From a phage, in sequence record NC_101838.1: a stretch of DNA of 64,000 bases, one strand, 5' to 3'. The notes below the pieces were generated by a model. It searched no databases, was not told the origin of the DNA, and was given only the letters and a program-made list of their open reading frames with translations. The position numbers and the translations under genes are program-made. The number at the start of each line of letters is the position of its first letter. Positions within the stretch are counted from its first letter, which is position 1. Below, piece after piece: positions 23,037 through 62,915 of the stretch.

Positions 23037-23432
23037 TTACTGAAACAGTGCGGATAAATTACCTTCTGGTGGGAACTTATCTGCCAAAAACGGTGTTAGC
23101 ACAGTAGCCTTCTGAAGATCTGGGGTCCACTCGTTGTTCAGAACATCCCAGTAGTACGCAATGTTGCTGTGTGGGTGCCGCATTACGAACTTTTTCCCTT
23201 CGTAGTCATCTGAAACCTCTACAGAAGAAATAACAACAGAATCTTCAAGGGTTTCTTCATAGAAAGATCCACCTTCAAATTTCCAACGAGATGCAAGAGC
23301 TCCTGCCTTGAACGCTGCAGATAACGGACTGTCGGCAAGAACATACATTTCTTGCACTCTGTCGCTGCGATCTTTGCTTCTTACGTTGTATACAGTATCT
23401 GAGCTATACTCAACACGGTATAGGCTTACCAT
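23037..23432 (-). CDS. hypothetical protein, paralog of 25239..25637 (131 aa)
   Basis: Shared ...V(M/I)xHP(H/D)S...YW(D/N)...WTP... pattern with the ORF at 25239. Confidence 0.55.
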   Translation of the reverse strand: MVSLYRVEYSSDTVYNVRSKDRSDRVQEMYVLADSPLSAAFKAGALASRWKFEGGSFYEETLEDSVVISSVEVSDDYEGKKFVMRHPHSNIAYYWDVLNNEWTPDLQKATVLTPFLADKFPPEGNLSALFQ

Positions 23433-23764
23433 TACCGCACCTCCTCAATAACTTCCACATCTGAGCCCACCACAAATGCAAAAGGACAGGTTTCATGAAA
23501 GACATCCGGATCGCCGCCAAGCTTGCTAACAATCTCTCCACCACTAATAAACACAAGCTCACCGATATTCATCAGATTGCTGAAATAGTACCCATAATGA
23601 TTAAAGAATGCAGCAGGGTCAGGTAGACTAGTAGCCTCAAGCACTACATCAGTTGAGGTTACTTTCTTATCATAACCTCTCGCCTTTTGAGATGCAAGAT
23701 CTGCAGAATCCTCAGGCGACCGGAGATGCACAGGAATTGTTTCACCAATAAAGCGTACTTTCAT
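23432..23764 (-). CDS. small acidic protein, MKV-start family (about 110 aa)
   Basis: Internal ATG (MKVRFIGE...) of the track ORF; ends ...GSDVEVIEEVR. Confidence 0.5.
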   Translation of the reverse strand: MKVRFIGETIPVHLRSPEDSADLASQKARGYDKKVTSTDVVLEATSLPDPAAFFNHYGYYFSNLMNIGELVFISGGEIVSKLGGDPDVFHETCPFAFVVGSDVEVIEEVR

Positions 23765-24123: not shown

Positions 24124-24393
24124 TTATTCCTCTACAATCTCATACACATCCGGAGTTACAATCAACTCTTCTCCGTTACCCGGTGCAACAAACACCACCA
24201 TGCCTTCAGGTGTGTGCTTTTTAGCCATCTCGATAACATCTTCTCGCAGAGCTGGCTCCATCAGATCAAAACCTTCACCCAGGGCATCACGAACCACCTT
24301 CATATAGTCAACTGGTTGTGCTTCGACAATCATACCTTCAACCAGTCCACAGTTTTTGTCTGCCAGCTCAGTTTTGAATAATTTAATTTTCAT
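24124..24393 (-). CDS. small acidic protein, paralog family (89 aa)
   Basis: MKIKLFKTEL... start, ...PDVYEIVEE end. Confidence 0.55.
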   Translation of the reverse strand: MKIKLFKTELADKNCGLVEGMIVEAQPVDYMKVVRDALGEGFDLMEPALREDVIEMAKKHTPEGMVVFVAPGNGEELIVTPDVYEIVEE

Positions 24394-24530
24394 TTAGAGG
24401 TCTCCTCAATTATTTGATATTAATAGCCGTAACCTAACACATTAACTACAACTGCGATTGCAAACATAATTTCAAAGCATGCAATCTCTACATTTGGGAC
24501 TAATTTCTTGATCACACCCATTGTAGCACC

Positions 24531-24848
24531 TCATTCTCTAAAGTCAATCTTTACTTTGCCTTTCCCCTTACCTTTCTTTCCACCGCATTTAGCCAGTTGA
24601 CGTGCTGCAACATCTACCATACGGTCAGTTGCCTCGTAAGCATCACTGCCTTTAGCTTTGGCAATAACTTCTTTTCCAGAATTGTCAAAAATGAACGCCA
24701 TAACTTCCTGGTGATCATTTTCAACTTTTACACTCACACGTGCATAGTTGGCAGAGGGATGCAAACGCTCCAGCTTAGACATTTTGTGGGAAATGAAAGA
24801 CACCATACCTTCAGTGATTTCTACGTTGCCAGTGATTTCAATTTGCAT
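24531..24848 (-). CDS. hpf: ribosome hibernation promoting factor / RaiA (YfiA) family protein
   Basis: MQIEITGNVEITEGM...KLERL...VSVKVE...AKAKGSDAYEATDRMVDVAARQLAK aligns by eye with recalled E. coli HPF (MQLNITGNNVEITEAL...KLEQY...VVLKVEK...ASAEGQDMYAAIDGLIDKLARQLTKH); Lys/Gly-rich tail. Confidence 0.75.
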   Translation of the reverse strand: MQIEITGNVEITEGMVSFISHKMSKLERLHPSANYARVSVKVENDHQEVMAFIFDNSGKEVIAKAKGSDAYEATDRMVDVAARQLAKCGGKKGKGKGKVKIDFRE

Positions 24849-24930
24849 AACGTGTTCCTTTTAAAGAAGAGGGAACCAAACCCTCTTTGAAAACAATGAT
24901 ACTAAATCTGAAGCGTTGTGTCAACAGTTT

Positions 24931-25238: not shown

Positions 25239-25637
25239 TCAGTTTAGCTTTTCTTCAACAACCCCATAGCTCGGGACAGAGTCAAGAGCTTTCTGGTTTA
25301 AAAGTGGTGTAGCAGAATCTGCAAACGGTGTCCAAGTTTTTGTTCTGGCATTCCAGTAATGCTTCACTCTGGAATCTGGATGCACTATAACAAAAACTTT
25401 TTCACTTGTCAACACATTAATTTCTTCTACACCCTTGCTGATAATTTCTCCGTCATAGCCACCAGTCTGGTATCCTTCGTACCAGGTTCTTGCATATGCA
25501 TAGCCAGCCTGCCAGCATGCAGCCTCCTCCGAGGTGGAGACTACGTAGAAGTCTTTCTCAAATTCTGGGATACGCCCTTGCTTTACGCTCCAAGCTCCGC
25601 GAATTTTCATTGTAACTTTGAACAGTTTATTTTTCAC
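25239..25637 (-). CDS. hypothetical protein, paralog of 23037..23432 (132 aa)
   Basis: Shared VIVHPDSRVKHYWNARTKTWTP pattern. Confidence 0.55.
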   Translation of the reverse strand: MKNKLFKVTMKIRGAWSVKQGRIPEFEKDFYVVSTSEEAACWQAGYAYARTWYEGYQTGGYDGEIISKGVEEINVLTSEKVFVIVHPDSRVKHYWNARTKTWTPFADSATPLLNQKALDSVPSYGVVEEKLN

Positions 25638-25649
25638 AACGGTTACCCA

Positions 25650-25904
25650 TCACAGCTCTACAATCTCTGCATCTGACCCTGCCCCAAAGGCATAATAGGA
25701 TTCTTCCCCGAAATAATATTCCGGTGCACCAGCAGCGATCAGGTCTGATCCCAAGATAAACACCACGTTGTGGCCTACATAACTGTGATGTTGCCGCACA
25801 GGATCATCCCACGGCAACCCTTCAAAGTATACCGCAGGAACGACCTTTCCCTTCAGGAAGGATTGTCCCAAGTAGACGTTAGAATCAAGAATTTTAACCT
25901 TCAT
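25650..25904 (-). CDS. small acidic protein, MKVK-start family (84 aa)
   Basis: MKVKILDSNVYLGQ...GKVVPA...GSDLIAAGA...AEIVEL. Confidence 0.55.
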   Translation of the reverse strand: MKVKILDSNVYLGQSFLKGKVVPAVYFEGLPWDDPVRQHHSYVGHNVVFILGSDLIAAGAPEYYFGEESYYAFGAGSDAEIVEL

Positions 25905-26121
25905 TCTCGTCCTCCACTATCTCTACATCCTCACCAAGGGCAAAGTTGTAGGTCCACTGGCTGTCAAAGCAGTCCTGAGATGCACCAGCGGAAATAAGAT
26001 CTGCACCTTTTATTTTTAAAAGGTCAGGATAATCTTCGTTAGGGATAGCGGTAAACACTTTCCCCACTAAGGGCTCCTGACCAATATAGAAGCTTGAATC
26101 TAAAACTTTAACTTTCATCAA
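25894..26121 (-). CDS. small acidic protein, MKVK-start family (75 aa)
   Basis: MMKVKVLDSSFYIGQ...GKVFTA...KGADLISAGA...VEIVED; tandem to the previous paralog. Confidence 0.55.
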   Translation of the reverse strand: MMKVKVLDSSFYIGQEPLVGKVFTAIPNEDYPDLLKIKGADLISAGASQDCFDSQWTYNFALGEDVEIVEDENEG

Positions 26122-29062: not shown

Positions 29063-29537
29063 GTGTGTAGCTGAAAAACATATCGAGAATAACCTTATTG
29101 ATATATTCCAGCTCCTCTGTGTTCAGATGCTTAGCAGGATCTACAATGACATCCCAAATATCATACAGACCACACTCATGATACCCATAACGCCACTCAA
29201 TTGTCAAGCTGAGCGGCAAATCTTTACCTTCACAAACAACCTTCCATCTACATATGTTGGTATCTGGTCGTACCTGTGCACGGTAAACCTGCACAAAATC
29301 CAATTTGAATTTGAGGTACTCGTCATACAATTTAAGCACAAAGCTCTCGATTTGTGGAGACACTTTTGCAGCAAACTGTGCGTATTTGTACTTGCACTGG
29401 ATGATCTTTCTGCGTTTTGCAGTTAAATTTTTTGCCGCCAGTTGTTCTTCAGTGTATCTCCACCTACGATCAACAAACGCAACAGGGTCTTTGTCCCCAT
29501 AGAGGTCTTCCCAGTTAATCAGAAGCATACCTGTCAC
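29004..29537 (-). CDS. hypothetical protein (177 aa)
   Basis: ORF in array. Confidence 0.5.
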   Translation of the reverse strand: MTGMLLINWEDLYGDKDPVAFVDRRWRYTEEQLAAKNLTAKRRKIIQCKYKYAQFAAKVSPQIESFVLKLYDEYLKFKLDFVQVYRAQVRPDTNICRWKVVCEGKDLPLSLTIEWRYGYHECGLYDIWDVIVDPAKHLNTEELEYINKVILDMFFSYTHENSEKERDNFLDTLSDHL

Positions 29538-29767
29538 TCCTCCACAACTTCAAGGCCTTTACCGCCTCGCTCTGGCAGATTACTTAAAGATAGGTAATAC
29601 ATATAATCAGGAGAGATCCTGCCAGACTCTGCACCTGCAGCTAGTAAATCCTTCCCTTTAACCAGGACAACATTCTCGTTTGCAGATAGCCGTTTTGCTT
29701 CCACAATTTTACCAACACAGTCAACCAAGGAAGGGTACCCTAAATCTGTAAGAAATTTAACTTTCAT
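29534..29767 (-). CDS. small acidic protein, MKVK-start family (77 aa)
   Basis: MKVKFLTDLGY...VGKIVEA...KGKDLLAAGA...LEVVEE. Confidence 0.55.
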   Translation of the reverse strand: MKVKFLTDLGYPSLVDCVGKIVEAKRLSANENVVLVKGKDLLAAGAESGRISPDYMYYLSLSNLPERGGKGLEVVEE

Positions 29768-62102: not shown

Positions 62103-62177
62103 GCCCTGTTAGCTTAGTGGATAAAGCAGCGGCCTTCTAAGCCGTTGACACTGGTTCGAGTCCAGTACGGGGTGCCA
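62103..62177 (+). tRNA. tRNA-Arg (anticodon UCU)
   Basis: Manual cloverleaf fold: 7-bp acceptor, D-arm agtggata, anticodon loop cuUCUaa, T-loop ttcgagt, encoded CCA. Confidence 0.85.
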
Positions 62178-62181
62178 AATT

Positions 62182-62268
62182 GGGGAGTTATCCCGTAGAG
62201 GTAGCGGTGTAGACTGTAAATCTATTGTCATTGCGACTCGGGTGGTTCGACTCCACCACTCCCCACCA
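62182..62268 (+). tRNA. tRNA-Tyr (anticodon GUA)
   Basis: Perfect 7-bp acceptor (ggggagt/actcccc), anticodon loop cuGUAaa, long variable arm, T-loop ttcgact, encoded CCA. Confidence 0.8.
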
Positions 62269-62382
62269 AATTTATATTTTTAGATGCATAAATAATACAG
62301 ATAATGGCATTGATATTTATCGTCGTTTATACTAGTCACTAACTGCTCGAAAATCAGTGTCATTATCAGTATTATTTATAAA

Positions 62383-62473
62383 GGAGGGTAGGGAGCAATG
62401 GTGCTCAAGCGGTCTTGAAAACCGTCCCGTTGAGGATGACTCGATGATGGTTCGATTCCATTACTCTCCGCCA
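62383..62473 (+). tRNA. tRNA-Ser (anticodon UGA)
   Basis: Acceptor ggagggt/actctcc, anticodon loop cuUGAaa, long variable arm, T-loop ttcgatt, encoded CCA. Confidence 0.8.
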
Positions 62474-62571
62474 CATTGTTGACCTTGTAATTAAGCGAAA
62501 GTCGGAAGCAGAACCGGATTATCAAATGTTACAGTCGTCATCGCCGACTAGCAACATGGTCAACATACTGA

Positions 62572-62670
62572 GCTAGGTAAGCCCTTTGGCAAGGGCGAGG
62601 ATTTTTAATCCTGAAAATAGACGAGGTAGTCGTTGAATACATAGGTGGTTCGATTCCATCACCTAGCACC
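62572..62670 (+). ncRNA. aberrant tRNA-like element (about 97 nt) lacking a canonical anticodon arm
   Basis: Good acceptor (gctaggt/acctagc), D-arm and T-arm (ggtgg-ttcgatt-ccatc), but the region between holds two 5-bp/5-nt-loop hairpins instead of a 7-nt anticodon loop. Confidence 0.35.
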
Positions 62671-62675
62671 TTTTT

Positions 62676-62751
62676 GCTGATGTAGCACAATCGGTAGTGC
62701 AATTGATTTGTAATCAATAGGTTGTAGGTTCAAGTCCTGCCATCAGCACCA
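62676..62751 (+). tRNA. tRNA-Thr (anticodon UGU)
   Basis: Acceptor gctgatg/catcagc, anticodon stem attga/tcaat with loop uuUGUaa, encoded CCA. Confidence 0.8.
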
Positions 62752-62752
62752 A

Positions 62753-62827
62753 GGCCCTGTAGCTGGAAGGTTCAAGCAAGCGACTCATAATCGCCAGACG
62801 GTGGTTCAATTCCACCCAGGGCCACCA
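62753..62827 (+). tRNA. tRNA with CAU anticodon (Met or lysidine-Ile)
   Basis: Acceptor ggccctg/cagggcc, anticodon loop cuCAUaa, T-loop ttcaatt, encoded CCA. Confidence 0.75.
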
Positions 62828-62838
62828 AATAGTAAATA

Positions 62839-62915
62839 CTCCGCGTAGCTCAGCTTGGTAGAGCGCCTGATTTGGGATCAGGAGGTCGAGTGTTCGAATC
62901 ACTCCGTGGAGACCA
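62839..62915 (+). tRNA. tRNA-Pro (anticodon UGG)
   Basis: Acceptor ctccgcg/cgtggag, canonical D-arm agctcagcttggtagagc, anticodon loop uuUGGga, T-loop ttcgaat, encoded CCA. Confidence 0.85.

Follow-up and report, generated by a model that had tools for sequence, protein, structure and literature searches.

The 64,000-nucleotide stretch of phage DNA analysed in this study (sequence record NC_101838.1, hereafter the window) contains a small complete gene for a homologue of the ribosome hibernation factor HPF, together with promoter-like and ribosome-binding-site-like sequences upstream of it (Table 1). A phage-encoded factor of the HPF/RaiA family had been predicted from the letters alone, and the open reading frame lies exactly at the coordinates of this original prediction, which did not state that it is on the minus strand. 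Its phage origin is borne out by the 4 kb around the gene, which are 99.9% identical to Escherichia phage AlexBoehm (Bas56) of the genus Vequintavirus, the rV5-like myoviruses; the protein is 100% identical to bas56_0150, the 'ribosome hibernation factor' of that phage.

Table 1. Features of the HPF gene and of the region upstream of it, in window coordinates.
Feature	Position	Strand	Remarks
Candidate sigma-70-type promoter, TTGACA-17 nt-TATCAT	24896..24924	minus	11/12 consensus matches
Small hairpin, AAGAGGG-7 nt-CCCTCTT	24867..24887	minus	at the predicted transcript 5' end
Shine-Dalgarno-like AAGGA	24856-24860	minus	7 nt 5' of the ATG; consensus resemblance only, read from the sequence
HPF homologue CDS, complete	24531..24848	minus	105 aa; ATG start; stop codon 24531-24533
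S30AE/HPF core domain, residues 1-87	24588..24848	minus	beta-alpha-beta-beta-beta-alpha fold
Lys/Gly-rich tail CGGKKGKGKGKVKIDFRE, residues 88-105	24534..24587	minus	specific to the phage protein; no HPF/RaiA counterpart

Family assignment, fold and expression context

The protein belongs to the HPF/RaiA family. The search against the S30AE/HPF profile that the original prediction had named as its own check gave a clear match: the PF02482 Ribosomal_S30AE profile was found with an E-value of 1.8e-12 and 48.3 bits, against a gathering score of 23.7, residues 3-88 of the protein being aligned with positions 1-83 of the 88 in the profile. The TIGR00741 model for the 'HPF/YfiA family' (NCBIfam) likewise scored 45.9 bits for the phage open reading frame, above its cut-off of 40.9. 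In a phmmer search of PDB sequences the top matches were the E. coli HPF chains 2rql, 4v8h and 6h4n (E 5e-12 to 2e-11), with residues 1-89 of the phage protein spanning residues 1-89 of E. coli HPF. An alignment with HPF along the whole length of the open reading frame, as had been proposed, is thus obtained for residues 1-89, whereas the last 16-18 residues are without an HPF counterpart.

At the subfamily level, residues 1-87 were 43% identical to E. coli HPF in BLASTP (38/88, E 5e-18), and the identity to E. coli RaiA was only 25%; the E. coli HPF sequence used matches the PDB alignment. The score against the equivalog model for short HPF (NF007780 / PRK10470) was 55.8 bits, below the cut-off of 125, and that against the RaiA/YfiA equivalog model (NF007654 / PRK10324) was 17.6 bits, far from the cut-off of 158. 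Since both the scores and the identities favour HPF, the phage protein is, as judged by its sequence, nearer to HPF than to RaiA, yet an equivalog of neither. The name 'RaiA' that it carries in RefSeq is not supported at the subfamily level by these comparisons, because the identity and the equivalog score for RaiA are low and because its tail is basic, in contrast to the acidic tail of RaiA.

An AF2 model calculated from an alignment of 22 sequences has a mean pLDDT of 83, with values of 87-95 across residues 1-80, whereas the model from the single sequence was poor (pLDDT 52). The secondary-structure elements of the former (E2-7, H13-29, E33-43, E46-55, E60-67 and H70-93) follow the order beta-alpha-beta-beta-beta-alpha. 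In a Foldseek comparison with the PDB, V. cholerae HPF (4hei_A) was the best match, with TM scores of 0.82/0.93 and an rmsd of 1.0 Å, and HPF in the E. coli 100S ribosome (6h4n_x) was superposed with an rmsd of 1.1 Å at an identity of 41%. All 36 PDB matches with E <= 0.001 were chains of HPF, RaiA or pY, or their relatives. The closest cellular type is the short HPF of E. coli (YhbH; PDB 2RQL, 6H4N, 6H58 and 6Y69), which has the same fold. The phage protein differs from it by a one-residue deletion in the beta1-alpha1 loop and a one-residue insertion in the beta3-beta4 loop, and the motifs DMY and AID of E. coli HPF appear as DAY and ATD in the phage protein. Unlike E. coli hpf, the phage gene lies outside an rpoN operon context. 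E. coli RaiA (YfiA, protein Y; PDB 1N3G and 4V8I) is of the same family and fold, and its tail also exceeds that of HPF.

The promoter candidate, which was found by a consensus scan, lies 48-76 nt upstream of the ATG, and PhagePromoter independently predicts the same site in the record of phage Gotham. The sister lineage described below (L003) has an unchanged copy of the block AAACTGTTGACACA around the -35 hexamer, despite the saturation of synonymous sites between the two lineages. Furthermore, the 9-mer CTGTTGACA, allowing at most one mismatch, is over-represented in the window, occurring 41 times against an expectation of 18.7, a count that was reached by 0 of the shuffles. Examples of the extended -35 motif CTGTTGACA are found at positions 2400, 19706, 19724, 24919, 55639, 56334 and 60998. 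The excess fits a phage-specific flavour of the host-type promoter, in which a TG or CTG would be conserved before the -35 hexamer. The hairpin listed in Table 1 has an MFE of -9.9 kcal/mol, with a z-score of only -0.83 relative to shuffled sequences, and is not present in the sister lineage; it is probably incidental.

From about 14.5 to 27.9 kb, a region that includes the HPF gene, the window contains no open reading frame of at least 150 aa. This small-gene stretch corresponds to the block of 88 mainly small open reading frames in phage rV5, for which 33 host-type (sigma-70-type) promoters have been predicted genome-wide (PMC3606486); the rV5 block also includes the HPF gene. The gene is probably transcribed by the host sigma-70 RNA polymerase from its own promoter, and the match to the promoter consensus suggests that it is probably expressed early.

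Distribution and evolution of the gene

The existence of the gene and its assignment to the family are already known, since many GenBank records annotate the gene and its description has been published together with a first experiment; the original prediction is therefore correct without being new. The protein of phage rV5 (ABI79209) was included among virus-encoded ribosomal proteins by Mizuno et al. (2019, Nat Commun 10:752; PMC6375957). This rV5 homologue, named 'ribosome-associated translation inhibitor RaiA' of Escherichia phage V5 in RefSeq, is the same gene: it is 99% identical to the window protein over 105 residues, lies at the same position and belongs to the same Pfam family, with residue 104 being Gly in rV5 and Arg in the window. 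The hpf gene was also noted, 'as already described', for the rV5-like isolates of a study from 2020. The additions made here are modest: a syntenic copy in a sister lineage with quantified purifying selection, a conserved promoter-like site, the ribosome-face residues that have been kept and lost, the phage-specific Lys/Gly tail and the finding that the name 'RaiA' is unsupported.

By tblastn, 118 phage records carry the protein, 116 of them at an identity of at least 95%. The labels vary among the records ('sigma 54 modulation factor', 'ribosome hibernation promoting factor' and 'RaiA'), and in the records of phages bov and NWU the HPF gene bears the wrong label 'ATP-dependent protease La type I'. 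The records of phages naam, ime, APECc02 and others give the label 'sigma 54 modulation factor' to the neighbouring open reading frame at 24124-24393 (minus strand, 89 aa). This neighbour was considered as a second copy and rejected; because it has no Pfam match and no similarity to the HPF open reading frame, its label is taken as an annotation slip. The gene is also carried by 18 'Campylobacter phage' records (MG0656xx: C15, A12a, C5, C9, A142 and others) with C. jejuni as the host. Among the copies listed the protein is 97-99% identical, and the records match the surrounding coliphage DNA as well; to judge from these matches, they look like rV5-like coliphage genomes with a doubtful host label.

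When 1.84 billion representative proteins were searched exhaustively with phmmer, 22 matches were obtained at E <= 0.001, among which the sole close relative was a phage protein of 103 aa (P0004) with about 65% identity. The best cellular relatives were enterobacterial HPF variants (38-45% identity), and the remaining ones were short and long HPFs (27-40% identity). A word-indexed protein search returned phage copies only, the cellular HPFs being reached by the exhaustive search. One match of the exhaustive search, a repeat protein of 1160 aa (P0006), was discarded as spurious. In the cellular protein P0012 (289 aa), about 190 more residues follow an HPF domain at the N-terminus; we presume that hpf may here have become fused to ptsN, its neighbour in the operon.

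The gene for the close phage relative lies on rV5-like contigs, the longest of about 137 kb, at the corresponding position within a comparable array of small genes, and its downstream neighbours are 50-60% identical to their counterparts in the window. Between the two lineages the proteins are 64-65% identical, with a pS of 0.78, which is saturated, and a pN of 0.25; the corresponding values for core residues 1-87 are 0.77 and 0.22. Within Vequintavirus the pN/pS ratio is 0.04-0.11, calculated from small counts of 5-14 synonymous and 2-4 non-synonymous differences. A locus search of IMG/VR with the phage-only alignment provided just two further loci. Because the copy is syntenic and pS is saturated while pN is low, the gene, on the evidence of these substitution patterns, is one that has been inherited vertically under purifying selection since before the split of the two phage lineages. 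Mizuno et al. proposed a 'relatively recent' transfer (PMC6375957), which is not supported here: the capture was not recent, because the nearest cellular HPF is only about 43-45% identical and the gene is older than the saturated split of the lineages.

In a collection of 50,697 phage records, E. coli HPF has practically no homologues outside the rV5-like phages, one jumbo phage and a few records that are fragments or mislabelled. A 'Salmonella' match in this collection was a bacterial contig with the host hpf rather than a phage. The HPF-like proteins of jumbo phages (Cronobacter phage GAP32, Escherichia phage PBECO4 and Xanthomonas phage XaC1) also have the S30AE fold and a length of about 110 aa; however, they are only about 22% identical to the window protein and fall into phrog_8990, in contrast to phrog_12469 for the latter. 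They are therefore regarded as separate acquisitions, as was likewise concluded by Mizuno et al. (PMC6375957).

Ribosome-facing residues and the C-terminal tail

The ribosome-contact positions were taken from cryo-EM structures of enterobacterial and Pseudomonas HPF and of RaiA (bioRxiv 10.1101/2025.10.07.680626) and mapped onto the alignment (A1). In E. coli numbering, both phage lineages retain K23, K26, Q/R29, E44, D75, R83 and K87, which correspond to K22, K25, R28, E43, D75, R83 and K87 in the window protein, and K91 is kept only in the window lineage. In contrast, K80 (replaced by Val or Thr) and K89 (replaced by Gly or Ser) have been lost in both lineages, each of these positions being Lys in 13 of the 17 cellular homologues. 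Other replaced positions are T53 (Phe or Arg), H55 (Phe) and Y30 (Leu). In the cellular factors R83 contacts m4C1402 and T53 contacts m2G966 (bioRxiv 10.1101/2025.10.07.680626). The identity to E. coli HPF is 8/22 at the contact positions, which is no higher than the 30/72 at the other positions. From this lack of an excess and from the residues lost, it follows that the binding surface has been only partly preserved.

Past K87 the tail comprises 18 residues in the phage protein, compared with eight in HPF (HKDKLKQH) and 26 in RaiA, so that it is ten residues longer than that of HPF. Its net charge is +5 (seven Lys or Arg among the 18 residues), against +2 for HPF and -4 for RaiA. Replacement of the HPF tail by this Lys-rich one accounts for the rise in pI from 6.5 for HPF to 9.0 for the phage protein. 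In the sister lineage the tail has another sequence and is again basic (net charge +3). Residues 91-105 are predicted by AF2 to be disordered (pLDDT < 50), and relative to the sister lineage the tail has evolved faster than the core, with a pN of 0.45 against 0.22. The RaiA tail runs toward the binding site of RMF (bioRxiv 10.1101/2025.10.07.680626); the phage tail is opposite to it in charge and has no sequence similarity to it.

Possible roles on the ribosome

Few phage genes act on the ribosome itself, and the question of whether this gene parks, protects or reactivates ribosomes bears on phages in slow-growing or dormant hosts. Selection clearly maintains the gene, yet the sole published functional test has been negative or inconclusive. 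When the rV5 protein was expressed in E. coli, its peptides were detected in the crude extract and none in the high-salt 70S and 100S fractions, and the 100S ribosomes were unchanged (PMC6375957). The growth phase, a genuine loss of binding and salt washing were offered by the authors as explanations of the absent association (PMC6375957). In the literature searched, no functional work on the phage HPF later than 2019 was found. High-salt washing strips E. coli HPF, RMF and RaiA themselves from ribosomes. The negative association test is therefore weak evidence.

The original prediction suggested that the phage manipulates ribosome dimerization or silences host translation, both of which are reasonable as hypotheses. 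The explanation preferred here, to which a probability of roughly 0.6 is assigned, is that the protein is a short HPF of host origin which has kept the ability to bind vacant ribosomes in the 30S decoding cleft, and that its benefit to the phage lies in control of the pool of idle ribosomes. A short HPF of gammaproteobacterial type would have been captured by the ancestor of the rV5-like coliphages (Vequintavirus and the sister lineage), and the captured hpf would have been retained under purifying selection. We infer that the core, through the retained residues (K22, K25, R28, E43, D75, R83 and K87), may bind in the same way as HPF and RaiA to the cleft between the head and body of the 30S subunit, where it would cover the positions of the mRNA and of the A- and P-site tRNAs, so that vacant host ribosomes would be occupied by the phage protein. 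The basic Lys/Gly tail could provide extra affinity for RNA; alternatively, it may head toward the RMF site, like the RaiA tail, in which case ribosomes would be parked as 70S monomers and not as 100S dimers with RMF and HPF. The benefit would consist of the protection of ribosomes and their fast re-use in hosts that grow slowly or have been shut off.

This explanation is supported by the family, the fold, the retention of key contacts and the strong purifying selection. It is weakened by the negative high-salt test, by the loss of K80 and K89 and the lack of excess conservation at the contact sites, by scores far below the equivalog cut-offs of both HPF and RaiA, and by a proposed early expression that is read from a consensus promoter match only.

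A special case of the preferred explanation, with the opposite physiological sign and a distinctly lower likelihood, is that the protein counteracts hibernation, an idea put forward by Mizuno et al. (PMC6375957). Here it would be a weak, reversible competitor of host HPF, RaiA and RMF that prevents or dissolves 100S dimers, with the purpose of making ribosomes usable for phage mRNAs in starved hosts or in hosts in which defence has induced dormancy. The loss of K80 and K89 and the salt-labile or absent association fit weak binding, the tail extends ten residues beyond that of HPF and the RaiA tail heads for the RMF site, and the induction of RMF has been linked to the dormancy-type defence DRT2. 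However, the small 100S peak was unchanged by expression, a weak objection in that stationary phase was not reported for those cells (PMC6375957). The charges of the tails also speak against it: that of the phage protein is basic and that of RaiA acidic, and because they are opposite, mimicry of RaiA is not evident. If the protein does antagonize hibernation or dormancy, rV5-like phages would be able to translate in nutrient-limited or defence-dormant hosts. More doubtful is a related arrangement, in which a weak-binding HPF mimic would use its extended basic tail to block RMF (or host HPF or RaiA) from locking ribosomes in the 100S or inactive 70S state.

Proteins of the HPF/RaiA family inhibit translation through their occupancy of the tRNA and mRNA sites. 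A factor for the shut-off of host translation, made early and blocking the decoding site of free ribosomes, would accord with this property, with a promoter-like site that the host polymerase could recognize and with the location of the gene within the small-gene block. Such a role is nevertheless unlikely, because a block of the HPF type cannot discriminate between the mRNAs of phage and host. In addition, ribosome profiles were unaffected by expression of the rV5 protein and no loss of 70S stability was reported (PMC6375957). The phage furthermore carries seven tRNA or tRNA-like genes (cluster at 62103-62915), which point to a boosting of translation rather than to a block.

Compared with these roles on the ribosome, of which the binding of vacant ribosomes by a captured short HPF remains the preferred one, exaptation of the fold for a non-ribosomal use is the least probable. 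The protein would then serve, for example, as a sponge for nucleotide immune signals in the manner of Acb4, or as an inhibitor of a host enzyme. The anti-CBASS sponge Acb4 (PF13876) is, like the phage HPF, a small phage protein with a dsRBD/HPF-like fold that is encoded among small genes of unknown function, a frequent setting for anti-defence genes, and its structure is similar to that of V. cholerae HPF 4HEI, the best structural match of the phage HPF as well. The dGTPase inhibitor Gp1.2 of phage T7 is a weak fold match in Foldseek, the contact residues are without preferential conservation and the published test saw no ribosome association (PMC6375957). However, PF13876 was unmatched even at E-values up to 10, no Acb4 structure was found among the top 50 PDB matches, the full-length identity to E. 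coli HPF is 43%, and the most conserved RNA-contact residues have been kept in two lineages whose synonymous sites are saturated. Acb4 is also a tetramer with ligand pockets, neither of which is indicated for the phage HPF. The rV5-like phages are unmentioned in the supplementary files examined for the Acb4 paper, so the Acb4 screen is silent on this gene.

Neighbouring genes

The HPF gene is flanked by two paralogous families of small proteins, and no Pfam match was found in any member of either. The first family has four members, all on the minus strand (23432-23764, 25650-25904, 25894-26118 and 29534-29767), which are related to one another with BLASTP E-values of 1e-3 to 8e-15; many members end in E-I/V-V-E. 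The second is a pair (23037-23432 and 25239-25610; E 2e-9). The families appear to have arisen by duplication, tandem or dispersed, inside the small-gene block. A hydrophobic open reading frame of 33 aa (MGVIKKLVPNVEIACFEIMFAIAVVVNVLGYGY; 24420-24521, minus strand) lies downstream of the HPF gene, 10 nt from its stop codon. In the record of phage AlexBoehm it appears as a hypothetical protein, and no gene is called there in the sister loci L003-L005; a small membrane peptide is a possible product.

Only six tRNAs (Arg, Tyr, Ser, Thr, Met and Pro) were reported in the rV5 genome paper. The seventh tRNA-like element of the present phage is found at 62572-62670 (plus strand, about 99 nt) and is called by ARAGORN as a tRNA of indeterminate type with a four-base anticodon; its match to the Rfam tRNA family scores 35.5 bits, the gathering score being 29. 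Possible identities are a pseudo-tRNA and a tRNA that carries either an intron or a long variable arm.
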